Part shown: piece after piece, positions 13,354 through 39,118 of the stretch
How the letters are laid out: the number at the start of each line of letters is the position of its first letter
Numbering within the stretch: position 1 is the first letter of the stretch
Origin: Dehalococcoidia bacterium
GTDB taxonomy: Bacteria; Chloroflexota; Dehalococcoidia; SHYB01
Length of the DNA stretch: 64,000 nucleotides
Assembly (NCBI GenBank): GCA_009693015.1
Contig: SHYB01000001.1
Location: 47,885 to 111,884 of the forward strand
Direction of reading: 5' to 3'
Translations under genes and position numbers: made by a program
The notes under the pieces: model-generated
What the model was told of the DNA's origin: nothing
Database searches by the model: none
Seen by the model: only the letters and a program-made list of their open reading frames with translations

Positions 13354-13410
13354 GAGAAGGGCCTCTTTTGTGGCGGGGTCGCTACAGACGGCGCGACGCA
13401 GCGGACGGCA

Positions 13411-14076: not shown

Positions 14077-14136
14077 ATCTCCCCTTGTGCGCAACAGCTT
14101 CGATTCTAGCATCGGCTCTGAGCCTGGCGCTACGGT

Positions 14137-15666
14137 CTACAGCGTATCGCGCACGGTGTCCAGGCCTTGGCCGGTGGCGACCCAGCGTTGGTAGAGGTCG
14201 CGGTACTCCAGGCTGCGCAGGGGGTCGGGGCGCAGGCGCGCGGGCCGCGGCGTCATGGCGGCAACGGCGCTAGCGAGATCGGCGTAGGCACCCGCGCCCA
14301 CGGCGGCGCACATCGCCGCGCCGAGGGCCGTCACCTCGTGGCGATGGTAGCGCAGTACTGCTGTTGCGGTGACGTCGGCGAGGATGCGGGAGAGCGTAGC
14401 GCCGCGGGCCATGCCGCCGCCAAAGTGCATCGCCGCCGGCGACGATCCGGTGATCTCCCGCAGCAGATCGAGGTTGGCGCGCACGGCGAAGGCAAAGTTT
14501 TCCAGCGCGGCGCGGAAGAGCTTGGCTGGCGTTGCCGGCGCGGCGGTGAGCGGCACGGGGAAGAGCAGGCCGCCCCAGCGCGGGCCGAGGTCGCGCATAT
14601 CGCCGGCGCGGGGGCCAAGGTAGGCCAGCACGCCGCCTGTGCCGGGGGCTTCGCGTGCCGCGAGGCGGTCAATGGCGGCGTCAGCGTCGTTGCCGGGCAC
14701 AGCGATGGTTTGAGCAATCCAGCGGTAGGCCGCGCCCGCCTCCGTGGCGTTCGCCTCGATCACGTAGCGGCTGGGGAGAAGGTGGCGGCTGCCCCAGGTG
14801 CGTGCGCTTGCGTCCAGGGTGTAGCTGCTGACGACGGCTTGCAGCGGCGCGCTCCATCCCGCGACGATTCCTACCTGGCCTGGTGTGGTGACGCCCATGC
14901 CCAGCAGGCCGCACTGGGTATCCGGCCCCGCGGCGATAACCGGGGTGCCGGTGGCAAGCCCGGTGGCCCGCGCCGCGGCAGGCGTGACCCCTCCAATGCG
15001 CCGGCCTGCGTCCACCAGCGGCGGCAGCAGCGACGCGGGCACGCCGAGGCGTGGCAGCAGGCCTGTGGCCCAGTCGTTAGCGGCAATATCCAGCAGGCCG
15101 ATTTCAGCGGCGGCGGCACGCTCCACGGCCAGTACGCCGGTGAGCATCCAGGCGGCCCAGGCATCGAGCGGCAAGACATGGCGGACGCGGACAAATATGT
15201 CAGGGCGGTTATCGCGGAACCAGGCGAGTTTGGCGGGGGCGAAGAGAAACGACGGCGCGTGTCCCGTCGTGCGATAGACGGCGTCGCCGTGGGCGTCATC
15301 GAGCGCTTGCCCGGAGAGGAAGGCGCGGGCGTCCGTGTTGGGGCCAAGATAGAGGGTATCCCCCTCAGCGCCTAGCAGCGCGATGCCTTCCCGCTGGCTG
15401 GTAACGGCTACGGCGGCGATGGCCGCGCCGCGCACGCCGGCATCGGCCATCGCATGGCGCACGGTGCGGGCGATGAGCCGCCACGAGCGCTGCGGGGGGT
15501 ACTCGGTGCCGTAGGGCGCAACGTCCGGCGGTGATAGGGGACGCCATGCGGATGAGGCGTGGCCGATGCTTCGGCCGCGACGGTCCACCACCACGCACTT
15601 GACGCTGCTGGAGCCGAGGTCAATGGCGAGGCAGAGCGGGCTAGCGTTGGGTGGCGGCGCGGCCAT
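14137..15666 (-). CDS. FGGY-family carbohydrate kinase
   Basis: 509 aa; N-terminal IDLGSSS actin-fold phosphate-1 motif, FGGY N and C domains; start overlaps upstream gene by 26 nt. Confidence 0.75.
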   Translation of the reverse strand: MAAPPPNASPLCLAIDLGSSSVKCVVVDRRGRSIGHASSAWRPLSPPDVAPYGTEYPPQRSWRLIARTVRHAMADAGVRGAAIAAVAVTSQREGIALLGAEGDTLYLGPNTDARAFLSGQALDDAHGDAVYRTTGHAPSFLFAPAKLAWFRDNRPDIFVRVRHVLPLDAWAAWMLTGVLAVERAAAAEIGLLDIAANDWATGLLPRLGVPASLLPPLVDAGRRIGGVTPAAARATGLATGTPVIAAGPDTQCGLLGMGVTTPGQVGIVAGWSAPLQAVVSSYTLDASARTWGSRHLLPSRYVIEANATEAGAAYRWIAQTIAVPGNDADAAIDRLAAREAPGTGGVLAYLGPRAGDMRDLGPRWGGLLFPVPLTAAPATPAKLFRAALENFAFAVRANLDLLREITGSSPAAMHFGGGMARGATLSRILADVTATAVLRYHRHEVTALGAAMCAAVGAGAYADLASAVAAMTPRPARLRPDPLRSLEYRDLYQRWVATGQGLDTVRDTL

Positions 15667-16669
15667 GTCGCTCCTGCCATGTTGCCCATGCTGCGGCGTT
15701 CACTAGGCGGCGCGGCTGCTTGCCGTCCAGCGCCAGCAGGATATCCTCGCTGATCATTGCCGACTGGCGCAGTACAGTCTCCGCGGTGGCCCCGCCCATG
15801 TGCGGCGTGAGGAGGACGTTGTCCAGGGCCAGCAAGGGGCTGCTCTCCGGGAGCGGCTGGCCCTCGAACACGTCCAGCGCCGCGCCGGCGATGCGATGCG
15901 CCGCCAGCGCGGCGATCAGCGCTTGCTCGTCCACCACGCCGGCCGCGGACGTATTGACGAGGCGCGCCATGGGCTTCATGCGAGCCAGCTGAGCCTCCCC
16001 GATCAAGCCCATCGTGGCCTCGGCAGCCGCGGCGTGGATGAGCACATAGTCGGAATCGGCGAGCAAGCGGTCGAGGTCCGTGAGCGACACGCCGCTCTTT
16101 GCGGCTTGCTCCGCGCTGACGAACGGGTCGTGGGCGATGACGCGCATATCGAACGCGCGCAGGCGCTGGGCGACGAGCCGCCCGATGGCGCCAAGGCCGA
16201 TGATGCCTGCGGTCTTGCCGGCAAGCTCGACGCCGCGGAACTGGGTGTAGCCCGCCACGGGGTCCTGCCAGCGCCGCTCCACGATGTGCCGGTGCGCCGC
16301 GGCGATGGGCCGCGCCAGCCCCAGCATCAGGCCGATGGTGAGCTCGGCGACGGCCATCGCATTGCGCCCCAGCGCGTTGACCACCAGGATGCCGCGCTGC
16401 GTGGCGGCGTCCAGATCGATGTGGTTGAGCGCGTTGCGGCACACGCCGATCATTTCCAGGAGCGGCGCTTGCTGCATCACATCCTCGAACACGAAGTCCG
16501 CCTCTACGACGAGGTAGCTGGTCTGGTCGTCACGCAGCCGCCGCGCCAGCACGGCGGGATCGTGCAGCTCGCCCGTATCCAGCCAGCTTTCGTGGGTGAC
16601 GCGGAGGCGCTGCCGCAGCCGCGCCAGGCAGTCGCCATCGAACGGGGCGAGGACCAGCGCGTGTTTCAT
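15641..16669 (-). CDS. D-isomer-specific 2-hydroxyacid dehydrogenase family NAD(P)-dependent oxidoreductase
   Basis: 342 aa; GLGAIGRLVAQR Rossmann motif; catalytic R/E/H arrangement; start ATG overlaps hpnE stop (ATGA). Confidence 0.75.
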   Translation of the reverse strand: MKHALVLAPFDGDCLARLRQRLRVTHESWLDTGELHDPAVLARRLRDDQTSYLVVEADFVFEDVMQQAPLLEMIGVCRNALNHIDLDAATQRGILVVNALGRNAMAVAELTIGLMLGLARPIAAAHRHIVERRWQDPVAGYTQFRGVELAGKTAGIIGLGAIGRLVAQRLRAFDMRVIAHDPFVSAEQAAKSGVSLTDLDRLLADSDYVLIHAAAAEATMGLIGEAQLARMKPMARLVNTSAAGVVDEQALIAALAAHRIAGAALDVFEGQPLPESSPLLALDNVLLTPHMGGATAETVLRQSAMISEDILLALDGKQPRRLVNAAAWATWQERHGRAATQR

Positions 16670-18063
16670 GGCTTGCGCGCAACCTCATGAGCCTTGCCGG
16701 CGACCTCGCGGGCGCACAGCACGCCGCTGCGCACCGCGCTTTCCATGGTGGAGGGCCAGCCGGTGTCCGTCCATTCGCCGGCGAGAAAGAGATTGGGCAC
16801 CGGCGTGCGCTGCGGCAGGCGTCCCGCGGCGGCGCCGGGGCTGGGGCGGAAGGTGGCGTGCCGCTCTTTGACGATGACGCACCGCGTGACGGCGGCCCCC
16901 TGGGCGCGGGGCAACAGGCGCGGCATCTCTTCCACGAACTTCGCGCGGATTTCATCCTTGGGCATGTCGATGAACTTGTGTGCTCCGCTGAGAGAGACGG
17001 CGATGTACTGGCCGTGGCCCGACGTATCCCCGAGGATCAGGCTCTTGTTGAACACCCAGTGCGCGTCGCTGTCAGGGAACGCGGCGAAGGCGTGCACCAT
17101 CACCGGGCGGTCGTACCACAAGTGCACGTTGACGATGGGCGACATGGCGAGCTTGGCGGCGCGGCGAAAGAAATCGTCGCGGCGCAGCGGCTCCGGCAGG
17201 AGGTCCGCCATCTCGCGCGGCGGGACGGCGAGCACGTAGGCGTCAGCGTGCATGACGCCGTGCTGGTGGATGCGCAGGCGGGTGATGCCCGCGCCATCGC
17301 CATCGAGCTGTTCGGCGTGGTGATCGAGCAGCACAGCGCCGCCGCGCGCTTCAATGTAGCGCTGCGCTTCTTGGTACAGCAGATTGGAGAGGCCGACGCT
17401 GGCGTAGCCGATGTCCGCGCCGTGGACGGTGGCGAGGAAGCCTTCCTGGAACACCATGATCGCTTGGGCGGCGCTGACGCGGCGAGGTTCATCGTTGAGC
17501 GTGGGCAGGATGACGAAGTTCCAGAAACGGTCAATGGCGGTGTCGCGCTGGCCGTGGGCCTTGAGCCAGTCGTAGAAGGAGACGTTGTCCAGGCGGTCGC
17601 GGCTGCGGTGGGACATGAGGCGCATGCGTGCCGAGGCCCAGGCCACGCGCATGCGGTCGCCGAACGAGAGGTGATGGTAGCGCAGCAGCGCGGGCGCAAG
17701 GTGCAGCGGCGGGGGCCAGAGCGGGGCGCTGTAGAGATCGGCGCGGCGCTGGCGGGCGTTGATCACGGGCACGCGCATGCGGCGCTGCATCGTGGTCTTG
17801 TGGGCGACACCGAGCTTATCCAGCAGGCCGGTGTAGGAGGTACAGCACTTCATGAAAACGTGCTGGCCGTTATCAATTTCCCGGTTACTTTCTTTATCGG
17901 TGAACGAGTAGACGCGCCCGCCGAGGTAGGGGCGGCGCTCCAGCAGGCGCACCTTCCAGCCCAGGCCGGCCAGTTCCATGGCGGCGGCGATGCCCGCCAG
18001 TCCGCCGCCGACGATGATGGCCTGCCGCGACGCTAGGCTTTCCCCAGCTTGGTTTTGAGCCAA
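16666..18063 (-). CDS. hpnE: hydroxysqualene dehydroxylase (squalene-associated FAD-dependent desaturase)
   Basis: 465 aa; IIVGGGLAGIAAA FAD motif, amine-oxidase fold, position after hpnC/hpnD. Confidence 0.8.
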   Translation of the reverse strand: MAQNQAGESLASRQAIIVGGGLAGIAAAMELAGLGWKVRLLERRPYLGGRVYSFTDKESNREIDNGQHVFMKCCTSYTGLLDKLGVAHKTTMQRRMRVPVINARQRRADLYSAPLWPPPLHLAPALLRYHHLSFGDRMRVAWASARMRLMSHRSRDRLDNVSFYDWLKAHGQRDTAIDRFWNFVILPTLNDEPRRVSAAQAIMVFQEGFLATVHGADIGYASVGLSNLLYQEAQRYIEARGGAVLLDHHAEQLDGDGAGITRLRIHQHGVMHADAYVLAVPPREMADLLPEPLRRDDFFRRAAKLAMSPIVNVHLWYDRPVMVHAFAAFPDSDAHWVFNKSLILGDTSGHGQYIAVSLSGAHKFIDMPKDEIRAKFVEEMPRLLPRAQGAAVTRCVIVKERHATFRPSPGAAAGRLPQRTPVPNLFLAGEWTDTGWPSTMESAVRSGVLCAREVAGKAHEVARKP

Positions 18064-18929
18064 ATTGTTCCCACCAGATAGAGTTTCTTGGATGTGGACA
18101 GGCGCACGCGCTCCTGGTGCACATTGTACCCTTGCTGCTCCATGCGGGTCAGCAGGGAGCTGTAGAGACCCTGGAGGGTGGCGGGGCAGACGCGGGTGCG
18201 GCGCGGCACCAGCGGCAGCAGCTTCGCTCCGCTGGCGAAGTACCCGCGGGCGCGGGCCGCCTGGAATCGCATGAGCGGGAGAAATCGCTCGTCCATCACG
18301 CCGTACCGCAGGTCGTCCTCGTAGTACTCGAAGCGGGCGAGCTCATCCAGCGGCAGGTAGACGCGGTCGCGTTCGATGTCTTCCTTCACGTCGCGCATGA
18401 TGTTGACCAGCTGCATGGCGATCCCTAGGTCAACGGCGTACTCCTTGGCCTTGGGGTCGGTGTAGCCGAAGATTTCCAGGCAAATCAGCCCGACTACGGA
18501 CGCGACGTGGTAGCAGTAGTCGCGCAGGCTGTCGAACGTCTGGTAGCGGCGCACGGTGAGGTCCATGACCACGCCGTCCAGGAGATCGTCAAAGTGCTGG
18601 CGGGGGATGCGGTAGGTGCGCACGACATCAGCGAGGGCGGTGAACACGGGGCCTTCGGGGTTGCCGGCGTAGCAGTCGTGGAGGCGCCGGCGCTGTTGGT
18701 CAAGCAACGCCTGCTTCTGCTCCAGGGGAATGGGTTCGTCGGCGTAGTCGTCGCAGGCGCGGCTGAAGGCGTAGACGGCGTAGATGGCCTGGCGCTGGCG
18801 CTGGGGCAAGGGCAGGAAGGCGAAGTAAAAGTTGCGCGCCTGCGTGCGGGCGATCTGCCGGCAGTGGCGGTAGGCCGCTTGCAGCGCCGCGGCGTCTGCG
18901 CCCACGGCGCCGCTACCTGCCGCGTACAC
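18033..18929 (-). CDS. hpnD: presqualene diphosphate synthase (squalene synthase family)
   Basis: 298 aa; trans-IPPS head-to-head fold, DDYADE Asp-rich motif; HpnC/HpnD assignment is by gene order. Confidence 0.7.
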   Translation of the reverse strand: MYAAGSGAVGADAAALQAAYRHCRQIARTQARNFYFAFLPLPQRQRQAIYAVYAFSRACDDYADEPIPLEQKQALLDQQRRRLHDCYAGNPEGPVFTALADVVRTYRIPRQHFDDLLDGVVMDLTVRRYQTFDSLRDYCYHVASVVGLICLEIFGYTDPKAKEYAVDLGIAMQLVNIMRDVKEDIERDRVYLPLDELARFEYYEDDLRYGVMDERFLPLMRFQAARARGYFASGAKLLPLVPRRTRVCPATLQGLYSSLLTRMEQQGYNVHQERVRLSTSKKLYLVGTIWLKTKLGKA

Positions 18930-19797
18930 GCTGCATCCCTAGCGCGGCGAAGGCTCCCGCGAGGAGCCGCAGCTTCCTGGCGCGGGAGACCTTGGGCCGT
19001 CGTGTCAGCGTATCGTAGCCCTGAGCGCGGATGGCGTCGAGGACGCTCATGCCGCCCAGGGTGAAGAGGCGCAGGTCAATGCGCAGCGCAGGGTCCACCA
19101 TGCCTGGAAGACCGGCGCCGTCCCGGAATAGCGCCCGCGCCCGCTCGACCTCGAACCGCATCAAGTCGCGGTAGTGTTGGTTCACCACGCCCGCCGCCAA
19201 CTCTTCTGGCGTGTAGCCGGACTGGGGGAAATCCTCGAGGGGGATATAGATGCGCCCCAGGTCGAAATCGCGTCTGACGTCCTGCCAGAAATTGGCGAGT
19301 TGCAGCGCGGTGCAGGTGGCGTCGGAGAGGCGCTGGCGCTCGGCGTCGTGGTAGCCAAACACAGACAGCACCATGCGCCCTACAGGGTTGGCGGAATGCT
19401 CGCAGTAGTGCAGCACATCGGCGTAGGTGGCGTAGCGGCTGTTGCGCTGGTCCATGCGGTTGGCTTCGATGAGCTTGAGGAACGGCTCGGCGGGCATGGC
19501 GTGGCGTCGCATGGTGTCTTGCAGGGCGATGAGAATAGGGTGCTCCGGCGTGGCGCTCGTGCAGCGGCGAAAGTCCCGCTCCCAGGAGTCCAGCAGCGCC
19601 AGGCGATCGCCGGGAGCCTCATCGCCCAGGTCGTCGGTGTGGCGGCAGAAGCCGTACACGGCGTACATGGAGGGGCGCAGGCGCTTGGGGAGGAACCAGG
19701 AGACGACGGTGAAGTTTTCGTAGTGCGACCGCGCCATGCGCTCGCAGCTGGCGTAGGCGCCGGCGAGGGTTGGGGGCGCGATGGCGGCGTGGGTCAT
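18913..19797 (-). CDS. hpnC: hydroxysqualene synthase (squalene synthase family)
   Basis: Squalene/phytoene synthase fold (YGFCRHTDDLGDE); start MTHAAIAPP chosen because longer track ORF runs into ispG. Confidence 0.7.
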   Translation of the reverse strand: MTHAAIAPPTLAGAYASCERMARSHYENFTVVSWFLPKRLRPSMYAVYGFCRHTDDLGDEAPGDRLALLDSWERDFRRCTSATPEHPILIALQDTMRRHAMPAEPFLKLIEANRMDQRNSRYATYADVLHYCEHSANPVGRMVLSVFGYHDAERQRLSDATCTALQLANFWQDVRRDFDLGRIYIPLEDFPQSGYTPEELAAGVVNQHYRDLMRFEVERARALFRDGAGLPGMVDPALRIDLRLFTLGGMSVLDAIRAQGYDTLTRRPKVSRARKLRLLAGAFAALGMQRVRGR

Positions 19798-19852
19798 GGT
19801 GCGTGTAGTCGGGGCATCACGCGGGTCATCAGGTTCAGCGCCCCGTTTCGCA

Positions 19853-21169
19853 TTACGCCGTGACCTTGGCGCCCCAGCGCTTGGCGACGTACTCTTCGAC
19901 CATGGCGATGAAGTCGGTGGCGATCGTTGCGCCCTCAAGGAAAGTGACGCGCTCTCCGTCAACGAAGACCGGGGCGCGGGGCGCTTCGCCGCTGCCGGGC
20001 AGCGAGATGCCGAGGTGCGCGGCGCGGGATTCGCCGGGGCCGTTCACCACGCAGCCCATGACGGCGACCTTCAGCGTCTCCGCGCCGGCGTACTGTGCCT
20101 TCCACTGCGGCATCTTGGCGTCCAGGTGTGTCTGAATGTCACGCGCCAATTCGCGGAAGAGGGAGGAAGTGGTGCGTCCGCAGCCGGGGCAGGAGGTGAC
20201 GGCGGGACGGAACGAGCGCAGGTCCAGCGCCTGGAGGATTTCCTGGCACAGGCGCACCTCGCGGGAGCGGTCGCCACCGGGCTCCGGCGTGAGGCTGGAG
20301 CGAATGGTGTCGCCGATGCCGTCGTAGAGCAGCACGGAGAGGGCCGCGGCGGTGGCGACGACTCCTTTGCTGCCCATGCCGGCCTCGGTCAGCCCTAGGT
20401 GCAGGGGAAGGTCGCAGCGGCGGGCCAGTTCGCGGTAGGCCTCCACCATTTGGGACAGGCGGGAGACCTTGCAGGAGACGATGATCTTGTTCTCCGGCAG
20501 GCCCAGGGCCACGGCGGCCTCGGCGCTGGCCAGGGCGCTCTCCACCAGCGCTTCGCGCTCCACCTCATCGCCGGTGAGGGGCGTGGCGCGGCGCGAGTTT
20601 GCGTCCATTTTCGAGATCAGCAGGTCCGGGTCCAGGCTGCCCGCGTTGACGCCGATGCGCACCGGCTTGCCCAGGTCGCGGGCCACGTCAATGAACGCGC
20701 GGAAGTTGTCATCATGGCGCGGGCCGCGGCCCACGTTGCCTGGGTTGATGCGGAACTTGTCCAGCGTCTTGGCGCAGCCGGGATGATCGCGCAGCAGGCG
20801 GTGGCCGATGAAGTGGAAGTCGCCCACGATGGGCACGCGGCAGCCGAGGGCGTCCAGGCGCTGGCGGATTTCCGGGACGGCGCGCGCGGCGGCGTCGTTG
20901 TTCACCGTGACGCGCACTAGTTCGCTGCCCGCGTCCGCCAGCAGCTTGACCTGGGCCACCGTCGCCTGGATATCGGCAGTGTCCGTATCTGTCATGGACT
21001 GCACGACGATAGGGTTCATGCCGCCCACGGCGACGTTGCCGACCATGACGACTTTCGCGGCGCGGCGGCGGGTGATGGCGTGTGCGCCGGCGACTTGCGG
21101 GGGCCGCGAATCCGCGATGACTTTTCCCCGTACCGGCCTGCGTATGTTTTCTGTTGCCATATTTGTCAC
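19853..21169 (-). CDS. ispG: 4-hydroxy-3-methylbut-2-enyl diphosphate synthase
   Basis: 438 aa GcpE; CPGCGRT and GCVVNGPGE Fe-S motifs. Confidence 0.9.
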
Positions 21170-21252
21170 CTTGCTGGGATCGTTAGCCGAGCCAATGCAA
21201 TGACCCTGCGGACGGACTGCGGATGGCTCGGTGCTTTAGTCCGGCACGAAAG

Positions 21253-23211
21253 TCAGACATTATCCGCCTCTTGGCGCAGGGCCTCGCGGTACTGGCCCAG
21301 GGCCATGAGGGGCCAGTAGTCCCGGTACATATGGTAGTTGATCATGAAATCGTGGGGAAAGCCAGTGCCGGTGAACTGCGGCTCGTCCCAGGAGCCGTGC
21401 GGCTTCTGCGTGTGCAGCAGGTATTCTACGGCGCGTCGGGCCGTTCTGCCGCGCGCCTCCCCCGCGGCAATGAGCGCCAGCAGCGCCCATGACGTCTGCG
21501 ATGCGGTGCTGGGGCCGCGCCCTGCCATATCTGGGTTACGATACGACTCGCACGCTTCGCCGAAGCCGCCGTCGGCGTTGGGATGCGAGTCCAGCCATTC
21601 GACCGCTTTGCGTACCGCGGGCTGGCCCATGTCTTCGCCGGCCCATTTGAGCGCGGGCAGCACCGACCCCAGGCCATAGACGTAGTTCACGCCCCAGCGG
21701 CCCCACCAGGAGCCGTCGCGTTGCTGCGCGCCGTAGAGGTAGCGGAGCGCACGCTGGACAACGGCGCTGCGACTTTCGTGCCCCGCGCGTCCAAAGTACT
21801 CCAGGGCATGCGCCGTGACATCCTCCGTGGGCGGGTCAATCACTTCGCCGAAATCGCAGAAGGGGATCGTCGTCATGAGCCTGCGCGTGTTGTCCACGTC
21901 GAACGATCCCCACCCGCCGTTGCGGTTCTGCATCCCTTCCATCCATGCTGCGCCGCGCTCCAGCGCCTGCGCCATGCGAGGGTTGCCGTCCCACCCCATC
22001 TTGCGCAACGCGATGAGCACCATCGCCGTATCGTCCACGTCAGGGTAGGTGGCATTATCGAACTCGAACGCCCACCCGCCTGGCTGGAGGCGGGGGCGCT
22101 TCACCTGCCAGTCGCCGCCATGATCAAGGACCTGGTTCTTGAGCAGCCATTCCGTGGACTTCACCAGCGCTGGGTGCGCCGGCGGAAGGCCGGAGTCTTG
22201 CAGCGCGAGCATGGCGATGCAGGTGTCCCACACTGGGGAGACGCATGGCTCGGTGTGGAAGGTGTCCGCCGTCTCTCTGGCGAATCGCTCGAAGCCGGCG
22301 AAGCCCTTGGCCATGACGGGATGGTCCATGGGATACCCGAGGGTCTTGAGGGCCATGAGAGCATAGACCCACGGCGGCTGGATGCCTCCCCAAGAGCCGT
22401 CGGCCTCCTGGCGTTCCAAGAGCCAGCGCTCCGCCTTGCGGAGGGCCACGCCGCGCAACGGCTTGACCGGCGACATTTCCATGAGGCGCAGGCCTTTGTC
22501 CACGCCGCGGAAGAAGCCCGTCCAGCTCAAGGGCGAGCCGTTCTTGCCGAAGGTGTATCTGGTGCGGTGCCGTCCCAGCGGGTACAGTTCGTCAATGCTG
22601 GCGTAGGACGGCACATGGCATGTAGGCTTGAGCGACAGCAGCACGGTGCAGGCGACGATGGTAGCGCGGGCCCAGGCGGCGAAATCGTAGATATTCCCCG
22701 GCATCCACGGGGGCACGAGCATCATCTCCGGCGGCAGCGCGGGAGTGCCGCGCCAGTCCCACTGGCCGAAGAGCGCCAGCCACATCTTGGTGAACACCCG
22801 CGTGTTGGGCACGCCGCCCAGGGCCAGGGCCACCTCGCGGGCTCTGCGCATCGCCGGGTCATTGGGGTCCACGCCGGCGAGCTTCATGGCGAAGTAGCAT
22901 TCGACGGTGCAATTCAGATCGCTGGGCCCGCCGTGCCACACCGCCCAGCCGCCCTCCGGCAGTTGCTGTTCGCGGAGGTAGCTGACGATCTTGCGCCAGC
23001 GCTGGGGGTCGGGCTTGCCGAGGAAGTGGGTGAGCAGGAGGTATTCGGCGTGGATGGCGCAGTTGGCTTCCAGCTCTCCCCACCAGGAGCCGTCAGGGAA
23101 TTGCACCCGCAGCAGGTAGTCCTGGGAGGCCTGGATGCCTTGGCTGAGGCGCTCCGCCAGCGGAGGCTCGCCACGCATGGCGGGCTGGCGCGGGGCGTCA
23201 TGCGTAGCCAT
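21253..23211 (-). CDS. shc: squalene-hopene cyclase
   Basis: about 650 aa; multiple QW repeats, DVDDTA catalytic motif; start MATHD (alternative 23241). Confidence 0.9.
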   Translation of the reverse strand: MATHDAPRQPAMRGEPPLAERLSQGIQASQDYLLRVQFPDGSWWGELEANCAIHAEYLLLTHFLGKPDPQRWRKIVSYLREQQLPEGGWAVWHGGPSDLNCTVECYFAMKLAGVDPNDPAMRRAREVALALGGVPNTRVFTKMWLALFGQWDWRGTPALPPEMMLVPPWMPGNIYDFAAWARATIVACTVLLSLKPTCHVPSYASIDELYPLGRHRTRYTFGKNGSPLSWTGFFRGVDKGLRLMEMSPVKPLRGVALRKAERWLLERQEADGSWGGIQPPWVYALMALKTLGYPMDHPVMAKGFAGFERFARETADTFHTEPCVSPVWDTCIAMLALQDSGLPPAHPALVKSTEWLLKNQVLDHGGDWQVKRPRLQPGGWAFEFDNATYPDVDDTAMVLIALRKMGWDGNPRMAQALERGAAWMEGMQNRNGGWGSFDVDNTRRLMTTIPFCDFGEVIDPPTEDVTAHALEYFGRAGHESRSAVVQRALRYLYGAQQRDGSWWGRWGVNYVYGLGSVLPALKWAGEDMGQPAVRKAVEWLDSHPNADGGFGEACESYRNPDMAGRGPSTASQTSWALLALIAAGEARGRTARRAVEYLLHTQKPHGSWDEPQFTGTGFPHDFMINYHMYRDYWPLMALGQYREALRQEADNV

Positions 23212-24184
23212 GCGCCCGGCACCATGTGATTGCATCTGCAAATGCTTGCTCCGGCGGCGTCTGCGGCAAGCCCAGCTCCTGCACCGCGCGGGAGGAGTCG
23301 AAATACATATGCTTGCGGGAGAGTTTGACCTCTGCCACGGTGACGCGTGGGGTGCGCCGCAGCAGCCGTCCCGTGACGGTTTCCTCGGCGCAGGCGTACA
23401 GCAGCGCGGCCAGGTAGGGGATGCGGCGCCGCGGCGGCTGGCAGCCGGCGATGCGGGCGATGGACTGGCAGATCTCCAGCAGGCTCATGTTGCGGTTGCC
23501 CAGGAGATAGCGCTCTCCCGGCTTGCCGCGGCGCATCGCCTGGATGTGGCCGCGCGCCACATCGCGTACGTGCACGATGTTGAGCCCGGTGTCCACGTAG
23601 CCGCTCATTCTGCCGCGCAGCACCTCCACCACGATCCTGCCCGTGGGCGTGGGTTTCACATCCCAGGGGCCCATAGGGGTGGTGGGGTTGACGATGACCA
23701 CTTCCAGCCCGTTGCCGTTGGCGCGAAGGGCCTCCTGCTCCGCCAGGTACTTGGAACGCTTGTACCCTGCCTGCATATCGCGGACTCTCACCGGGGTGGA
23801 CTCGTTCCCCGGCGTGCCGTCTTTCGGCAGGCCGATGGTGCCTGACGAGCTGGTATACACCACGCGCCGCACGCCCGTCTCCCGCGCCGCGGTAAGGAAC
23901 GCTCGCGTTCCCAGGACGTTCACCTGGTGTGTGAGCCGGTGGTCCGGGGGCCAGAAGACGTAGTGGGCGCCGGCGTGGTATGCCTCGCGGCAGCCCTGGA
24001 GGGCCTCCCGCAGCGATGCTGCGTCGCGCAGGTCGCCTTCGGCCAGCTCCACATGCAAGCCGGAGAGCGCCGTGCGGTCGCTGGCGGGCCGCGCCAGCAC
24101 GCGCACCGTTTCGCCGTCCGCGAGCAGTTCGCGTACGAGGTTGCTGCCGATGAAGCCGGTGGCGCCGGTGACCAGGACCGTCAT
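23198..24184 (-). CDS. hpnA: hopanoid-associated NAD-dependent sugar epimerase/dehydratase
   Basis: MTVLVTGATGFIGS Rossmann start, YxxxK; position between hpnG and shc. Confidence 0.7.
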   Translation of the reverse strand: MTVLVTGATGFIGSNLVRELLADGETVRVLARPASDRTALSGLHVELAEGDLRDAASLREALQGCREAYHAGAHYVFWPPDHRLTHQVNVLGTRAFLTAARETGVRRVVYTSSSGTIGLPKDGTPGNESTPVRVRDMQAGYKRSKYLAEQEALRANGNGLEVVIVNPTTPMGPWDVKPTPTGRIVVEVLRGRMSGYVDTGLNIVHVRDVARGHIQAMRRGKPGERYLLGNRNMSLLEICQSIARIAGCQPPRRRIPYLAALLYACAEETVTGRLLRRTPRVTVAEVKLSRKHMYFDSSRAVQELGLPQTPPEQAFADAITWCRAHGYA

Positions 24185-24954
24185 CGCCGCACCGCGAAGG
24201 CGGCAGGATAGCGGGCGAGCAGCAGTTCGGCGAAGGCGGCGATGTTGCGCGCGCCCAATCGGGCGTTCGCCGCGAGGCCGGGCGTGGCGGGAATGTGCCA
24301 GGGGTGGGTGGCGTAATACCACGCGGCGCTGAGCATGCGCACTTCGCCCATCGGGTCGAGAAATCGCTCGTAGTCGGGCAGCGTGTCCGTGCTGGTGTCG
24401 GAGGCGGCGCGCACTGCCAGGGCGGGCGTGCCTGCCTCGCCGGCCGCCTGGGCCACCCAGTAGCTTTCCATGTCTACCGCCGCCGCTTGAAACTGCGCCG
24501 CAAACTGGGCCTTCTGCCTGGGGCCGGGCATGGCGTGGGGTACGCTGACGATCGTGCCCCGGTGGGCGCGCACAAACTCCTCCTCCAGCCAGCCGAGGCT
24601 TGCGTCCACCAGCGCGGCATCGGCGGCGATGGGCGGGTGGCTGGAGGCGTCCCCCGCTTCATCCGGCGCCATGAGCCGGGCGGCGACGACGAGGTCACCG
24701 CCTTTCACGGCAGGGGACGCGCCGCCGGAATAGCCTGTGGTCACGATGAGCGCGGGGCGGTAGCGGGCGCAGGCGGCCTGCGTGGCGCGGATGGAGCGTT
24801 CTTTGCCGATGCCCGACTGCACCAGCGCCAGAGGGGTGCCCTCAAGGCGACCTTCCGTGAATATGGCGCCCTCGAGCTGCCGGCGGACAGGCGCTGCCAG
24901 AAGGCGCTCGATCTCCGCCAGTTCCCGTCGCAGCGCGGCGATAAACACGAGCAC
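24181..24954 (-). CDS. hpnG: hopanoid-associated phosphorylase/nucleosidase (PNP/MTAN fold)
   Basis: 257 aa PNP-UDP family pattern; synteny with hpnH. Confidence 0.7.
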   Translation of the reverse strand: MLVFIAALRRELAEIERLLAAPVRRQLEGAIFTEGRLEGTPLALVQSGIGKERSIRATQAACARYRPALIVTTGYSGGASPAVKGGDLVVAARLMAPDEAGDASSHPPIAADAALVDASLGWLEEEFVRAHRGTIVSVPHAMPGPRQKAQFAAQFQAAAVDMESYWVAQAAGEAGTPALAVRAASDTSTDTLPDYERFLDPMGEVRMLSAAWYYATHPWHIPATPGLAANARLGARNIAAFAELLLARYPAAFAVRR

Positions 24955-24959
24955 GCTGG

Positions 24960-25340
24960 TTACTCCTGCTCTTGTGCCGCGGTCTCGCCGCGGCCTTCGT
25001 CTGCGCCGCGGGCAGCAGTCTTGGCGAGGACAGCGTCGCGGCGCTTCGCCCAGGCGTCCCAGCTTTTGCCCGCGGAGGTGTCCTTGCCGCTGAAGCGGAT
25101 GCCCGCGATCCGCGCATAGGGCAGGCGCGTGGGGCCGTTGCCCTCCACATCGAAGTACTCGATGAACGGCGCAGGCCCCGTGGCGTTGCGATTAGAGACG
25201 TAGCATTCCAGCAGCGCGCCGTCTGTGAGCGCCAGCGTGACGTTGCCGCGATAGTCGAAGGCGTGCTCGATGATCTGCGCCAGCGGCAGTTCCGGCCCCG
25301 GCTGCGCCGCCCACCCCTCCCGACTGGTTTCTTCAGGCAT
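24960..25340 (-). CDS. hypothetical protein embedded between hpnH and hpnG
   Basis: 126 aa ORF, tightly packed (29 nt after hpnH, 5 nt before hpnG); no family recognised. Confidence 0.45.
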   Translation of the reverse strand: MPEETSREGWAAQPGPELPLAQIIEHAFDYRGNVTLALTDGALLECYVSNRNATGPAPFIEYFDVEGNGPTRLPYARIAGIRFSGKDTSAGKSWDAWAKRRDAVLAKTAARGADEGRGETAAQEQE

Positions 25341-25369
25341 TGGTGCTTGCTCCTAGAGCTTTCCGCTGC

Positions 25370-26392
25370 CTACAGCTTGCCGCTGATAGTGGCGATCACT
25401 GTCTTGCCGAAGGCCACGGGGGAGCCGAACGTCTTGCTCACGGCAGTGGCCTCAAAGCCGCAATGCACCATGCAGTCCTTGCACTTGGGGTTGCCGCTGG
25501 CCTTGCCGTAGCTGTCCCACGCTGTGGTCTCCAGCAACTCCTTGAACGTGGCGGCGTACCCCTCCTGCAGGAGGTAGCATGGCCGCTGCCAGCCGAAATT
25601 GTTGTACAGCGGCATGCCCCACGGCGTGCATTCGTAGTTATGCTTGCCCATGAGGAACTGGAGGAACAGCGGCGATTGGTTGAACTGCCACGCACGCTTC
25701 TTATTGGAGAGGACGCTGGAGAACAGTTCGTTGGTGCGCTGCTTCTGGAGGAAGTGCTCTTGATCGGGGGCCTTGGAATAGCTGTACCCCGGCGAGATCA
25801 TCATGCCTTCCACGCCCAGGGCCATCATATCGTCGAAGAACCTACGCATGCCCAGAGGCTGCGTGTTATCGAACAGCGTGCTGTTGGTGGTCACGCGAAA
25901 GCCCCGGCTCACCGCCGCCTTGATCGCCTCCACGGCCACGTCATAGGTGCCATCGCGGCAGACGGATGCATCGTGCTGCTCGCGGGGGCCGTCCATGTGC
26001 ACGCTGAAGCTCAGGTACTTGGATGGCGTGAACAGCCCTTGCTCCAGTTTTTCCTTGAGCAGGAGCGCATTGGTGCAGAGGTATATGTACTTGCGGCGCT
26101 TGACCAGCTCCCGCACCAGCTCGGCGATGTGCGGGTACATCAGCGGCTCGCCGCCGGCGATGCTCACCATGGGGGCGCCGGACTCCTGCATGGCGTGGAG
26201 GCACTGCGCCACGGAGAGGTTCTTTTTGAGGATTTGCGCGGGGTACTGGATTTTGCCGCATCCCGCGCAGGCCAGGTTGCAGCGAAAGAGGGGCTCCAAC
26301 ATCAGCACCAGAGCGTACCGCTTGCGCCGCATGATCTTCTGGCGCATCACGTGCTGGGTCACCGTCCACGCCTGCGCCACGGGTACTGCCAT
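25370..26392 (-). CDS. hpnH: adenosylhopane synthase (radical SAM)
   Basis: 340 aa; CNLACAGCG radical-SAM cluster motif; typical HpnH length and C-terminal Cys-rich region. Confidence 0.85.
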   Translation of the reverse strand: MAVPVAQAWTVTQHVMRQKIMRRKRYALVLMLEPLFRCNLACAGCGKIQYPAQILKKNLSVAQCLHAMQESGAPMVSIAGGEPLMYPHIAELVRELVKRRKYIYLCTNALLLKEKLEQGLFTPSKYLSFSVHMDGPREQHDASVCRDGTYDVAVEAIKAAVSRGFRVTTNSTLFDNTQPLGMRRFFDDMMALGVEGMMISPGYSYSKAPDQEHFLQKQRTNELFSSVLSNKKRAWQFNQSPLFLQFLMGKHNYECTPWGMPLYNNFGWQRPCYLLQEGYAATFKELLETTAWDSYGKASGNPKCKDCMVHCGFEATAVSKTFGSPVAFGKTVIATISGKL

Positions 26393-26443
26393 ATCTTACG
26401 ATCCTTCTCTAGGCCGGCCCTTGGGGCCAGCGGTACGGAGATG

Positions 26444-27511
26444 CTAGTGCTCCCGATCCATCAAAAACTGCACGAGGTCCGCGAATTCGGCGCGCGCCGC
26501 GGCGGAAAGATGCACCGGCGCCAGGGTTGCCATGCTGCGCTCCGCATGCTCCCGCGCCAGGCCGGTGCAGTAGGCGGCGGCGCGGACCTCGTCCAGCACC
26601 GCCAGCACGTCGTGCACATCGCCTTCTTGCAGCGGGCGGTCGCTTCGATAGATCGCCAGCATACGATCGCGTGACGCGCCCTCGGCGTGCGCGAGTGCGT
26701 AGACGATGGGCAGCGACTTCTTGCGGCGGTGGATATCGCCGGCGGCGGGCTTGCCTGTTTTGTCCTGGGCGCCCCATACGCCGAGCATATCGTCCCGAAC
26801 CTGGAACAGCAGGCCCAGGCCCTTGCCGAACAGGCGCATCGCTTCCACCGTGGATGGGTCCGCCGCCGCGGCCACTGCGCCCATGTGCAGCGACGCTTCC
26901 AAGAGCGCCCCCGTCTTTTTGTCGATCATCGTGAGATAGTCGTCCACGCGCACGCTGGGCCGCCGCTCGAACGTGAGGTCGAGCACCTGCCCTTCGATCA
27001 TCTCCAGCGAGGCGCGGGTGAGGATGCGCGAGATCTCCAGGCGGCGCTGCGGCGGCAGCGCGCCGGGGTTGGTGTCCAGCAGCGCCAGGTTGCCCAGGGC
27101 GTGCATGGCGTCGCCGGCGTTGATGCCGTGGCTCTGGCCCCAGATGTACCACACCGTCTTGCGATGGCGGCGCTCCGTGTCCCCGTCTTGAATATCGTCG
27201 TGGATGAGGGAGAAGTTGTGGATCAGCTCGATGGCCACCGCGGGGGGCAGCGCCTGCTCCTTTGTCCCGCCCACGGCTTCGCAGGCGAAGAGGCACAGCG
27301 CGGGGCGCACCTCCTTGCCCACGTTGGCATCGGCGGCGCGGCCCTGCTCGTCTTGCCATCCCAGGTGGTAGCGCAGCATGTCATAGAGGGGCGCCGTGCT
27401 GTCGGGGAACGCGGCCTTCAGCCCAGCGCGAATATCGCTGCGGTAGCGGGAGAAGACGTGGGGAATCGCGGTGGCAGGCATGGGTGCGGCTTGGCTGTCT
27501 GACCCTCTCAT
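26444..27511 (-). CDS. polyprenyl diphosphate synthase (FPP/GGPP synthase, IspA-like)
   Basis: Two Asp-rich motifs (LIHDDIQD, FQVRDDMLG); alternative start 27481. Confidence 0.8.
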   Translation of the reverse strand: MRGSDSQAAPMPATAIPHVFSRYRSDIRAGLKAAFPDSTAPLYDMLRYHLGWQDEQGRAADANVGKEVRPALCLFACEAVGGTKEQALPPAVAIELIHNFSLIHDDIQDGDTERRHRKTVWYIWGQSHGINAGDAMHALGNLALLDTNPGALPPQRRLEISRILTRASLEMIEGQVLDLTFERRPSVRVDDYLTMIDKKTGALLEASLHMGAVAAAADPSTVEAMRLFGKGLGLLFQVRDDMLGVWGAQDKTGKPAAGDIHRRKKSLPIVYALAHAEGASRDRMLAIYRSDRPLQEGDVHDVLAVLDEVRAAAYCTGLAREHAERSMATLAPVHLSAAARAEFADLVQFLMDREH

Positions 27512-27546
27512 TTCATCTCATTTCATCTCGTCATCTCGTCATCGTG

Positions 27547-29454
27547 TCAACGCGACGCCCGCGCGGTTGAGCGAGCGGCGGCAGCAGGACGCTGGGAGAA
27601 AAATGCTTCGCGCACCCGGCGGGCGATGCCTTCCGCGTCCAGTCCCAGTTGCTGTCTTTGCTGCGCTGCCGTGGCGTGTTCCACAAATGAGTCCGGCATG
27701 CCGATGCGCACGGTATGCACTCCGGTGACCCGTGCATCGCTGAGGGCTTCCAGCACCGCCGAGCCGAAGCCGCCATCGCGCACGTTCTCTTCCACCGTCA
27801 CCAGGCGTCCCGTGGCCTGGGCCGCGCGCACGATGAGCTCGCCGTCCATGGGCTTCACAAAGCGGGCGTTGACCACCATGCAGGAGATGCCGTCGCGCGC
27901 CAGCGCCGCCGCTGCCTCAAGCGCCGGCTGCACCGTCTTGCCGATTGCCACCAGGGTCACATCGCTGCCCTGGCGCACCACTTCCCCCTTGCCGATGGGC
28001 AGCGCGTGCAGCTCCGCATCCAGCGGCACGCCCAGGCCCGATCCCCGCGGGATGCGGATGGCGATGGGGTGCTGGTAGGTGTAGGCGGTGTAGACCAAAT
28101 GCTGCAGTTCGTTTTCGTCCTTGGGGGCGCAGACTACGGCGTTGGGCAGGCAGCGCAGGTAGGAAAGATCGTAGGCGCCGTGGTGCGTTTTGCCGTCTTC
28201 GCCCACGATGCCCGCGCGGTCGGCGATCAGCACCACGGGCAGGTCCTGGAGGCAGACGTCATGCACCACCTGGTCGAAGGCGCGCTGGAGGAAGGTGGAG
28301 TAGATGGAGACGAAGGGCTTGACGCCGTTGCTTGCCATGCCCGCCGCCACGCTGACGGCATGCTGCTCGGCGATGCCCACGTCGAACACGCGGTCGGGAT
28401 GCGCCTTCTTCGCCTCCGCCAGCCCGGTGCCTTCCAGCATCGCCGCGCTGATGCCCACGACCTTGCGGTCTGTGTCCATGAGCCGGATCAGCGTCTGGGC
28501 GAAGACCTTGGAGTAGGTGGGCGCGGTGCTGCCCCCGCTGATGAGCGGCGACGATGGCTGATGATAGCGCACGGGGTCTTCTTCGGCGGGCCCGTAGCCG
28601 CGGCCCTTGTGCGTGATGACGTGCACCAGCGGGGTCTTGCCCGAAAAGTTCTTCGCCTGGCGGAAGGCCTCTTCCAGCGCCTTGAGGTTATGCCCGTCCA
28701 CTGGGCCGATGTACTGCAAGCCCATCTCCGTCCACAGCGTCGTGGGCAGAGCGAACCCCTCCAGCCCGTGCTCGATGCGCCGCGCGAAGTTGTACACCAG
28801 CTCCCCCGTAGGGACCTTTTTCGCAAGGCGCTTCGTCCGCTTCACCATCGCCAGATACTCGGGGTGGGTGATGATCCGCTGGCGCCAGTGCGTGAGGAAG
28901 CCGATGTTCTCCGAGATGGACATGCCGTTATCGTTGAGCACCAGGATGAGATTGTCCGGGCTGAGGTGGGAGATGTTGTTGAGCGCCTCATAGCTGGAGC
29001 CGGAGGTCATGGCGCCGTCGCCGACGATGGCCACGCTCCACGCCGGGCTGCCGCGCAGCTTCTCCGCCTGGGCGATGCCCAGGGCGATGGAGAGTCCCGT
29101 GCCGGCGTGGCCGGCGCACAGCGTATCGTGGGGGCTTTCCGATGGTTCGCCGAACCCGGAGATGCCCTCCACCAGGCGGATGTCCTTGAACTCTTCCCGG
29201 CGTCCCGTGACGATCTTGTGGGTGTAGAGCTGATTGGTGGTGTCCCACACCAGCTTGTCCTTGGGGCTGTCAAACGACTGGTGCAGCGCCAGCGTCAGCT
29301 CCACCACGCCCAGGTTGGAGGCGAGGTGTCCGCCGCGTTGCGTGATGACGCTGATGATGAGATCGCGAACTTCCTGGGCCACCTGCTTGAGAGCCTTACG
29401 ATCCAGACTCTTGAGGTCGGCAGGCGTGTGAATGGAGTCGAGCATGCGTCCCAT
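27547..29454 (-). CDS. dxs: 1-deoxy-D-xylulose-5-phosphate synthase
   Basis: 635 aa; TPP-binding GDG..N motif, transketolase-like domains, N-terminus MGRMLDSIHTPADLK. Confidence 0.9.
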   Translation of the reverse strand: MGRMLDSIHTPADLKSLDRKALKQVAQEVRDLIISVITQRGGHLASNLGVVELTLALHQSFDSPKDKLVWDTTNQLYTHKIVTGRREEFKDIRLVEGISGFGEPSESPHDTLCAGHAGTGLSIALGIAQAEKLRGSPAWSVAIVGDGAMTSGSSYEALNNISHLSPDNLILVLNDNGMSISENIGFLTHWRQRIITHPEYLAMVKRTKRLAKKVPTGELVYNFARRIEHGLEGFALPTTLWTEMGLQYIGPVDGHNLKALEEAFRQAKNFSGKTPLVHVITHKGRGYGPAEEDPVRYHQPSSPLISGGSTAPTYSKVFAQTLIRLMDTDRKVVGISAAMLEGTGLAEAKKAHPDRVFDVGIAEQHAVSVAAGMASNGVKPFVSIYSTFLQRAFDQVVHDVCLQDLPVVLIADRAGIVGEDGKTHHGAYDLSYLRCLPNAVVCAPKDENELQHLVYTAYTYQHPIAIRIPRGSGLGVPLDAELHALPIGKGEVVRQGSDVTLVAIGKTVQPALEAAAALARDGISCMVVNARFVKPMDGELIVRAAQATGRLVTVEENVRDGGFGSAVLEALSDARVTGVHTVRIGMPDSFVEHATAAQQRQQLGLDAEGIARRVREAFFSQRPAAAARSTARASR

Positions 29455-29532
29455 CGTGTGACAACCCTCTCACTTGCCGTCTGCGGCTCATTTGCCGCTT
29501 GTGCCGCGTCACCAGTGCGAAGGTGAACGCCC

Positions 29533-29589
29533 CGATACCTCAGTATCCGATGCTCACGAAACGTAGCACACCTGTTGGGAGGGTGTCAA
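29533..29589 (-). promoter_or_regulatory. candidate sigma70-type promoter (TTGACA-17/18-TACGTT on minus strand) with a 16-bp near-palindrome (GGATAC-TGAG-GTATCG) downstream, upstream of dxs
   Basis: Read on minus strand; spacing appropriate; unverified. Confidence 0.3.
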
Positions 29590-29614
29590 ACTGGGGAGGG
29601 CGATCCCGCGGCGG

Positions 29615-38986: not shown

Positions 38987-39118
38987 GGCGAACCTCCAAC
39001 TACAGGGATTGTACCCAGGTTGGGGAAGGATGGCAAGGCGGCTACGCCAGCATTGACACCCTGGAGGGGCAGGCATACTATCGCTGGCGGGCGCACGCCG
39101 CACCAAGGAGCAATCGTC

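Follow-up and report, generated by a model that had tools for sequence, protein, structure and literature searches.

Do the isoprenoid precursor genes found inside a hopanoid gene cluster serve that cluster alone, and where does the cluster end? These questions are raised by a locus in a 64,000-nt stretch of DNA (the window, to which all coordinates below refer) from the metagenome-assembled genome (MAG) of an uncultured Dehalococcoidia bacterium of the phylum Chloroflexota (assembly GCA_009693015.1, contig SHYB01000001.1, positions 47,885 to 111,884; locus tags EXR49_). A sequence-only reading of the window had outlined a run of hopanoid (hpn) genes from dxs to hpnE and regarded the dxs, ispG and prenyl diphosphate synthase genes as dedicated to the pathway. 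The results below identify the locus as a true hopanoid gene cluster, extend it by a four-gene module that accompanies hpn genes in most contexts, and suggest that ispG is probably a housekeeping gene. Hopanoids, the sterol-like lipids of bacteria, count among the major lipids of bacterial membranes and are unsurpassed in abundance as molecular fossils, yet several genes associated with hpn clusters have no assigned role so far (PMC12583986). As possible producers of hopanoids the Chloroflexota have received sparse recognition, and this includes their uncultured Dehalococcoidia, which are very abundant.

The hopanoid block and its four-gene extension

All eleven open reading frames (ORFs) of the original run were found to be real and were recovered on the minus strand, tightly packed between the hpnE stop (16666) and the dxs start (29454). 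Translation starts were taken from an external gene call (HpnA 328 aa, Shc 652 aa, IspG 435 aa, HpnC 294 aa). NCBIfam scores were judged against the curated equivalog cut-offs, which eight of the eleven genes pass; Pfam agrees. The limit placed at 16666 had to be moved, four more conserved co-directional genes (12985-16669) belonging to the block. The fifteen genes, from dxs onwards, are as follows.

27547..29454, minus strand: dxs, 1-deoxy-D-xylulose-5-phosphate synthase, 635 aa (TIGR00204 732 bits, cut-off 466; DXP_synthase_N, Transket_pyr, Transketolase_C)
26444..27511, minus strand: short-chain polyprenyl diphosphate synthase, 355 aa (PF00348 204 bits)
25370..26392, minus strand: hpnH, radical-SAM adenosylhopane synthase, 340 aa (TIGR03470 524 bits, cut-off 225; Radical_SAM and DUF3463)
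24960..25340, minus strand: hyp126, lineage-restricted 126-aa protein, EXR49_00370 (10 homologues, synteny)
24181..24954, minus strand: HpnG-like purine nucleosidase/phosphorylase, 257 aa (PF01048, PNP_UDP_1, 105 bits)
23198..24184, minus strand: hpnA, hopanoid-associated short-chain dehydrogenase/reductase (SDR) "sugar epimerase", 328 aa, overlapping the hpnG stop by 4 nt (TIGR03466 432 bits, cut-off 368)
21253..23211, minus strand: shc, squalene-hopene cyclase, 652 aa (TIGR01507 803 bits, cut-off 431)
19853..21160, minus strand: ispG (gcpE), HMBPP synthase, 435 aa (NF001540 438 bits, cut-off 345)
18913..19797, minus strand: hpnC, hydroxysqualene synthase, 294 aa (TIGR03464 323 bits, cut-off 250)
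18033..18929, minus strand: hpnD, presqualene diphosphate synthase, 298 aa (TIGR03465 291 bits, cut-off 279)
16666..18063, minus strand: hpnE, hydroxysqualene dehydroxylase, 465 aa (TIGR03467 429 bits, cut-off 283)
15641..16669, minus strand: D-2-hydroxyacid dehydrogenase resembling D-3-phosphoglycerate dehydrogenase (PGDH), 342 aa, ATG overlapping the hpnE TGA (2-Hacid_dh_C 198 bits)
14137..15666, minus strand: FGGY carbohydrate kinase, LsrK-like, 509 aa, EXR49_00325 (FGGY_N, FGGY_C)
13411..14112, minus strand: class II aldolase, FucA/DrdA-like, 233 aa (Aldolase_II 175 bits)
12985..13353, minus strand: p122, 122-aa beta-sandwich protein with the fold of a C-glycoside deglycosidase (CGD) beta subunit (DUF6379/PF25653, 66 bits)

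Shc and the complete HpnC, HpnD and HpnE route to squalene are present, all above their NCBIfam cut-offs. As had been proposed, a single locus combines genes for precursor supply, for making and cyclising squalene and for the C35 side chain, in an arrangement kept in at least 12 related genomes. The reported absence of hpnB, hpnI, hpnJ, hpnK, hpnN, hpnO and hpnP also held, no glycosyltransferase, resistance-nodulation-division transporter, aminotransferase or second radical-SAM domain being present among the approximately 50 window ORFs scanned. In the external gene call on the same DNA, the successive junctions from dxs to hpnE measure 29-35, 51, 29, 5, -4, -14, 92, 55, -17 and -31 nt. An ATGA overlap, in which the hpnE TGA and the dehydrogenase ATG read ccATGAaa, then leads into the four-gene extension, whose own junctions measure -26, +24 and +57 nt; the hpnG/hpnA junction is an ATGA overlap as well. 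Past p122 the strand switches to a convergent RidA-family gene.

The order of the fifteen genes is maintained, at 35-84% protein identity, in related genome loci L002-L005, L007, L009-L012, L017, L024 and L064, with hyp126 and the four downstream genes all syntenic. The flanks, greA-ftsH upstream and a peroxiredoxin gene downstream, are also syntenic in relatives, and the remainder of the window is made of chromosomal housekeeping genes (RNase Y, LigA, ribonucleotide reductase, a class II aminoacyl-tRNA synthetase, FtsH, GreA, PlsY, Pth, HPPK). Horizontal transfer of the block is not indicated, given these syntenic flanks and a GC content of 0.66-0.71 compared with 0.63-0.69 in most of the remaining window. 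Taken as a whole, the locus is best explained, we hold with some confidence, as one hopanoid biosynthesis block, inherited vertically, whose 15 co-directional genes span 12985-29454 on the minus strand.

The largest gap upstream of the block separates it from ftsH:

29455..29614, minus strand: spacer of 160 nt from the ftsH stop to the dxs start, candidate promoter region read from the sequence

The spacer holds a perfect TTGACA (29589-29584) followed, 18 nt further (N18), by a weak -10 motif, TACGTT (29560-29565, minus strand), and GAGAGGG precedes the ATG. This is the sole promoter-like element seen ahead of the block, and a weak candidate that falls below the threshold of the consensus scan. 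A riboswitch ahead of dxs is not indicated, since an Rfam scan of the whole window returned no RNA family. Weighing against the block reading, the consensus scan for promoters and terminators was uninformative: it returned a single promoter-like site where 2.2 were expected and 17 terminator-like sites against an expectation of 10 ± 3.4, none of them convincing inside the block.

The association of the four-gene module with hpn genes reaches well beyond the close relatives of the window. A metagenome scan with a p122 alignment returned 80 loci; the 18 with at least 9 kb of upstream sequence were assessed, and showed hpn genes directly upstream in 12, the module alone in five and p122 alone in one. 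The module follows hpnE, a single squalene-synthase-type (SQS) gene or shc in 12 genome loci, and of eight further gene contexts looked up for distant homologues six show it after squalene-synthesis genes or shc. With about 30 of 37 contexts showing it, the association of module and hpn genes is strong, though not absolute, and extends further than that of ispG with hpn genes. Wherever the upstream end of a module-bearing cluster can be seen, hpnH and hpnG are part of the cluster. The module also follows hpn genes in clusters devoid of ispG. Among the distant homologues it comes straight after hpnE or a single SQS gene in clusters of otherwise differing layout, the arrangements being hpnA-shc-YjbQ-hpnCDE-module, prenyl synthase-hpnCDE-module, hpnH-hpnG-hpnA-shc-SQS-module and prenyl synthase-hpnH-hpnG-shc-YjbQ-SQS-module. 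Within the module, p122 comes after the aldolase in nearly all loci; in L081, L083, L086 and L172 it is itself followed by an SDR epimerase gene and an inosine-uridine (IU) nucleoside hydrolase gene. Homologues of p122 identified by shared sequence words number 47, and those with a named source all come from Chloroflexi/Dehalococcoidia. No description of the four-gene module was found in the literature searched, and a 2026 microsynteny survey of shc neighbourhoods, which lists only hpnL, hpnM, hpnS and hpnT as new families, does not have it among them.

Predicted chemistry of the module

The best Protein Data Bank (PDB) relatives of the dehydrogenase are D-3-phosphoglycerate dehydrogenases (E 1e-54); the match is confined to the catalytic and NAD domains and scores 257 bits on the SerA model TIGR01327 (cut-off 454). 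The kinase is closest to the autoinducer-2 (AI-2) kinase LsrK (PDB 5ya0, E 1e-67; next best 3e-29) and reaches 256 bits on the AI-2 kinase model NF008187 (cut-off 528). The aldolase matches Bacillus thuringiensis DrdA (PDB 6btd, E 4e-38) and Streptococcus pneumoniae FucA (4c24, E 2e-36), with 168 bits on NF005302 (cut-off 264). Its metal ligands His111, His113 and His174, together with Glu92 and the phosphate-site residues Asn43 and Ser90, are invariant in 64 of 64 module aldolases and are the equivalents of FucA His92, His94, His155, Glu73, Asn29 and Ser71. The AlphaFold2 (AF2) model of p122 (pLDDT 87, pTM 0.80) finds CGD beta subunits or domains as all of its best 17 PDB fold matches (template modelling score, TM, 0.62-0.76). 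The best Pfam family of p122 is PF25653 (HMG-CoA_red_N); the CGDB model gives 23.0 bits, below the cut-off of 27.6. An exhaustive profile search collected 675 cluster representatives of this domain, mostly of about 120 aa, with rare fusions to GH4 glycosidases, IU-nucleoside hydrolase, HMG-CoA reductase and possibly an SDR. P0171 and P0074 are the representatives for the IU-nucleoside hydrolase and SDR cases, and the SDR one may be a gene-call artefact.

By family membership, DXS and IspG of the methylerythritol phosphate (MEP) pathway and the short-chain prenyl diphosphate synthase would supply the precursor, from which HpnC, HpnD and HpnE would form squalene and Shc the hopene skeleton. HpnH would add a 5'-deoxyadenosyl group to give adenosylhopane, and the HpnG-like nucleosidase would remove adenine to leave ribosylhopane, in effect a 5-substituted 5-deoxyribose; HpnA is also present. 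The literature has yet to assign the step that follows ribosylhopane (PMC12583986). Judging from sequence, we give roughly even chances to the module acting on the hopanoid side chain. The kinase could phosphorylate the terminal C35 hydroxyl of bacteriohopanetetrol (BHT), much as GlpK and the erythritol kinase EryA phosphorylate the terminal hydroxyl of polyols. The dehydrogenase would then oxidise the C34 hydroxyl beside the CH2-O-P group, in the manner of PGDH, to yield a ketose-1-phosphate, and the aldolase would cleave the C33-C32 bond to release dihydroxyacetone phosphate (DHAP) and a C32 hopanoid aldehyde, by analogy with FucA and DrdA acting on 6- and 5-deoxy ketose phosphates. Like the CGD beta subunit, p122 might provide a pocket for the hydrophobic "aglycone". 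This exact succession of kinase, dehydrogenase and aldolase with a p122 pocket is drawn by analogy, and we consider it distinctly unlikely to hold in every step; that the module constitutes a new side-chain pathway, with retro-aldol cleavage to DHAP and a C32 aldehyde leading onward to bishomohopanol or bishomohopanoic acid, appears to us about as unlikely.

Assigning the module to hopanoid side-chain cleavage is weakened chiefly by three points, namely that an isomerase is missing, that Tyr113' is replaced and that modules occur on their own, and the following findings all weigh against it. The module comprises no aldose-ketose isomerase, and none of its four proteins reaches a curated NCBIfam equivalog cut-off. 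The position of the FucA catalytic residue Tyr113' is occupied by Glu or Asp in 64 of 64 module aldolases. Because the metal and phosphate sites are kept while this position is always acidic, the module aldolases form a distinct subfamily; because an acid replaces Tyr113', the protein called "aldolase" could, within the same fold, also act as an epimerase, a dehydratase or a decarboxylase. Stand-alone modules, with no hpn genes within 10 kb, are found for example in L084/85, L111, L128, L129, L131, L153 and L171, and conversely L013 has ispG-hpnCDE and no module. To our knowledge, no hopanoid has been measured in any Dehalococcoidia.

These observations leave room for the module being unrelated to hopanoids, that is, a small sugar- or nucleoside-salvage operon that sits beside hpn genes in this phylum. 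A variant of 5-deoxyribose or methylthioribose disposal yielding DHAP and a route to a phospho-hydroxyacid are candidates. Such a role would fit the occurrence of the module on its own in about seven of 37 contexts, including beside cofC/cofD/cofE in a complete genome, and the fact that the best aldolase match, DrdA, is the aldolase of 5-deoxyribose salvage. It would also fit the HpnG-like protein, which scores equally on the HpnG model (90 bits, cut-off 187) and on the methylthioadenosine/S-adenosylhomocysteine (MTA/SAH) nucleosidase model (95 bits, cut-off 169), and which owes the HpnG label to its conserved place between hpnH and hpnA. However, the module keeps its place beside squalene-synthase genes or shc in no fewer than five different cluster arrangements and down to about 30-45% protein identity, and its first gene overlaps hpnE by ATGA. 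Neither an MtnK/MtnA-type kinase or isomerase nor a sugar transporter lies alongside the module, and the modelled resemblance of p122 to a CGD beta subunit suggests a bulky aglycone. On this evidence we regard a salvage role as possible but doubtful.

Alternatively, the module might modify the side chain without cleaving it. Its dehydrogenase could be the reductase converting ribosylhopane to BHT, with the kinase forming a BHT phosphate head group, or the module could carry out epimerisation to BHT stereoisomers, with the dehydrogenase, the SDR and the aldolase-fold enzyme acting on a side-chain carbon. The ribosylhopane reductase lacks an assigned gene (PMC12583986), and glyoxylate and hydroxypyruvate reductases belong to the same family as the module dehydrogenase. 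The acid at the Tyr113' position is reminiscent of L-ribulose-5-phosphate 4-epimerase, an enzyme of the aldolase fold. Against this stands the retention, as in true DHAP aldolases, of the Glu at the FucA Glu73 position and of the full phosphate site; the options under this heading are, moreover, computationally indistinguishable. Modification without cleavage seems unlikely to us, somewhat more so than salvage.

The surroundings of the stand-alone modules are varied. In L084/L085 (7127-9153) a gene for a B12-binding radical-SAM protein and one for a 201-aa unknown protein are inserted between kinase and aldolase, with no hpn genes within 12 kb; the hopanoid methylases HpnP and HpnR belong to this class of B12-radical-SAM enzymes. 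The L111 module follows a LuxC-like acyl-CoA reductase gene. In L171 (OY764147.1, 1,882,222-1,903,718), a complete Dehalococcoidia chromosome in which ispG occupies a housekeeping locus, the module stands between cofD/cofC with a DedA/VTT gene on one side and genes for F420 ligase (cofE) and an F420 oxidoreductase on the other. The F420 neighbourhood is not repeated in other stand-alone loci and is considered incidental. Within the window, a gene for a xylose-isomerase-like TIM-barrel protein (PF01261), of the superfamily of the catalytic CGD alpha subunit and the sole gene of that family in the window, is found at 46663-47535 (plus strand), 33 kb from p122; a homologue 66-69% identical to it lies about 5 kb downstream of p122 in L003, L004, L005 and L012. 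The TIM-barrel protein could be the missing isomerase or the partner of p122.

Conserved as it is inside Chloroflexota hpn clusters, the module provides testable candidate enzymes for new side-chain chemistry, as well as a genetic marker for the Chloroflexota-type hopanoid pathway in metagenomes. Should the cleavage pathway prove true, enzymes would for the first time be assigned to steps beyond ribosylhopane. In that case it would also represent a direct biological source, in abundant uncultured Chloroflexota, of C32 hopanoids, which geochemists usually see as diagenetic products of bacteriohopanepolyols.

Standing of ispG, dxs and the remaining genes

If ispG were dedicated to hopanoid synthesis, as the sequence-only reading had it, a housekeeping copy would be expected elsewhere in the genome. 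The window itself contains no dxs or ispG paralogue detectable by tblastn. A scan with IspG, taking one genome per species, yielded as its best 80 loci almost exclusively MAGs of Dehalococcoidia/Chloroflexota (68-84% identity), with labels of Chloroflexota/Planctomycetota also occurring. When the window proteins were compared with these loci by tblastn, ispG was found beside hpn genes in 13, twelve of them in the window order, and without any cluster genes nearby in about 67 of the 80. In the 13 linked loci ispG sits between shc and hpnC. In the window, gaps of 92 and 55 nt, wider than any others within the block, lie on either side of it, and in other Chloroflexota hpn clusters its place is taken by YjbQ or by nothing.

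In a neighbour-joining (NJ) tree of 81 IspG sequences the cluster-linked genes are not monophyletic, the unlinked IspG of L001, L006, L028, L020, L029 and the L014-L021 group being nested among them. The unlinked gene lies in the housekeeping order uppS/dxr/rseP/ispG/proS in L001, L006 and L020, and in L014 proS is located about 1 kb downstream of it. Three complete chromosomes that bear the cluster (OZ244810.1, OZ242299.1 and OZ253453.1) each contributed a single ispG match among the best 80, down to 68% identity; in relatives the housekeeping ispG shows 72-84% identity, a value at which such a copy would be expected to rank within that set. Since linked and unlinked genes interleave on the tree, relatives hold the gene in its canonical locus and the three complete chromosomes show one match each, ispG is probably the only, housekeeping copy of the genome, relocated from a uppS-dxr-rseP-ispG-proS locus and co-located with the hpn genes; the sequences thus favour relocation over a dedicated paralogue. 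A sole genomic copy is what the sequence-only reading had itself set as a refutation of dedicated genes, and the evidence points to it indirectly. The scan is blind to a paralogue of less than about 68% identity or without its peptide patterns, which counts against this conclusion.

The alternative, in which dxs, ispG and the prenyl synthase gene are extra, hopanoid-dedicated paralogues with housekeeping copies elsewhere in the genome, draws on Streptomyces coelicolor, where the same gene set is clustered and the clustered dxs and ispG are reported to be second copies. It also draws on the embedding of ispG between shc and hpnC. Apart from the evidence on ispG given above, it is opposed, if weakly, by the behaviour of dxs, which is syntenic in nine relatives but dispensable from the cluster of L002, where ftsH is followed directly by the prenyl synthase gene. 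All in all, dedicated paralogues seem to us unlikely. The dxs/ispG part of the locus is ordinary, its composition being known from Streptomyces and, for ispG, probably reflecting the relocation of a housekeeping gene.

Concerning the names given to the eleven genes by the sequence-only reading, those of dxs, hpnH, hpnA, shc, ispG, hpnC, hpnD and hpnE stood up to the cut-offs, while hpnG and the polyprenyl synthase are looser matches than had been written. The latter had been taken for a farnesyl diphosphate synthase, a specificity that could not be upheld: it scores 161 bits on the FPPsyn model NF045485 (cut-off 275), and no chain-length-specific NCBIfam model reaches its cut-off. Its first aspartate-rich motif (FARM) is DDIQD, without the two-residue insertion of bacterial farnesyl diphosphate synthases and with Phe at -5, and for this reason the product is predicted to be short-chain, C15 or C20. 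The best NCBIfam match of the protein is to an encapsulin cargo protein; this identity was rejected, the score being 333 against a cut-off of 450 and no encapsulin occurring among the scanned ORFs.

The hyp126 gene has a coding-type GC3 (0.83), and its product shares 35 invariant columns with 10 homologues; the gene is syntenic between hpnH and hpnG in 11 loci. No match was found in Pfam, NCBIfam or PDB sequences, and the AF2 model (pLDDT 73) gives weak fold matches to Sm/WYL-like barrels (E >= 4.5e-3, TM <= 0.48). A sub-clade of the same cluster type, comprising L003, L004, L005, L009, L010 and L012 (at about 11.2-12.2 kb) and L024 (at about 8.2-9.2 kb), has lost hpnC and hpnE and retains a single HpnD-like SQS_PSY gene directly before the dehydrogenase gene.

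Elsewhere in the window, a gene for an SPFH/Band 7 protein (stomatin/flotillin-type) followed by one for an NfeD membrane protease forms a membrane-microdomain pair at 54030-56345 (minus strand), about 25 kb from the hopanoid block. The GreA ORF (31524-32606, plus strand) carries about 200 residues before the GreA domains, which begin at residue 210; in L002 a homologue with 50% identity, likewise located upstream of ftsH, aligns over about 267 residues, longer than the GreA domains alone. Either the protein has a long N-terminal extension or its TTG start is over-called. Four Amidohydro_2 (PF04909) paralogues (38885-40210, 42320-43780, 61152-62504 and 62440-63597), a luciferase-like monooxygenase, a putative cyclase and several alpha/beta hydrolases make up a repertoire of amidohydrolases, monooxygenase and hydrolases that resembles the one reported for SAR202-type Chloroflexota.

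Comparison with known clusters and enzymes

The module enzymes are related in several ways to known systems. With the fucose enzymes FucK/FucA/FucO and with DrdK/DrdI/DrdA it shares a kinase and a metal-dependent class II aldolase that, in those trios, releases DHAP and a "deoxy"-bearing aldehyde. DrdA (PDB 6btd) is the 5-deoxyribulose-1-phosphate aldolase for salvage of a radical-SAM by-product (PMC6079011). The parallel extends to the substrate: formally, ribosylhopane is a 5-deoxyribose with a substituent at position 5, and a nucleosidase produces it just as one produces 5-deoxyribose. Unlike the Fuc and Drd trios, the module has an FGGY/LsrK-like rather than an MtnK-like kinase, lacks an isomerase and adds the PGDH-like dehydrogenase and the CGD-beta-like subunit; unlike FucA and DrdA, its aldolase has Glu or Asp at the Tyr113' position and misses the NCBIfam cut-off, although the His ligands, Glu73 and the phosphate pocket are kept.

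The resemblance to CGDs (DgpB-DgpC, CarB-CarC, DfgA-DfgB) resides in the beta-subunit fold of p122 (TM up to 0.76). In those enzymes, once the sugar has been oxidised, the metal-dependent subunit breaks the C-C bond between keto-sugar and hydrophobic aglycone, which lies at the alpha/beta interface (PMC8563793). The neighbour of p122 differs in being a class II aldolase, with no adjacent xylose-isomerase-like TIM-barrel alpha subunit. LsrK and PGDH, for their part, act on small polyhydroxy or keto compounds at or beside a terminal CH2-O(P) group, as the module kinase and dehydrogenase may do, but the scores of the latter are about half of the curated equivalog cut-offs and no lsr or ser genes are nearby.

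At the level of the whole cluster, the window shares hpnCDE, shc, hpnH, hpnG and hpnA with the proteobacterial and acidobacterial hpn clusters (hpnA-hpnP; acidobacterial types A, B and C), and differs from them in lacking hpnB, I, J, K, N, O and P as well as hpnL, M, S and T. In Acidobacteria subdivision 1 a different MEP gene, ispH, is found next to shc-hpnH (PMC5462960). A close parallel is provided by the hopene/aminobacteriohopanetriol cluster of S. coelicolor, in which SCO6760 (phytoene synthase), SCO6762 (phytoene dehydrogenase), SCO6763 (polyprenyl synthetase), SCO6764 (Shc), SCO6766, SCO6767 (IspG), SCO6768 ("transketolase", DXS) and SCO6769 (aminotransferase) follow one another (PMC3610822, PMC6414726). 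With polyprenyl synthetase, Shc, IspG and a DXS-type transketolase side by side in that cluster, the earlier remark that called the presence of ispG among hpn genes unusual is not borne out. Squalene-synthase-type genes, a desaturase-type HpnE, polyprenyl synthetase, Shc, HpnH, IspG and a DXS-type transketolase, all co-directional, are common to the window and to SCO6759-SCO6771, and Shc and HpnCDE of Actinobacteria and Chloroflexi group phylogenetically (PMC7306690). The two differ in gene order; the window adds HpnA, hyp126 and the four-gene module, is devoid of an HpnO-type aminotransferase (SCO6769) and appears to hold ispG as a sole copy. In its overall gene composition the locus is thus of the known Actinobacteria/Chloroflexota "Streptomyces hopene cluster" type, and the four-gene extension is its distinctive part.

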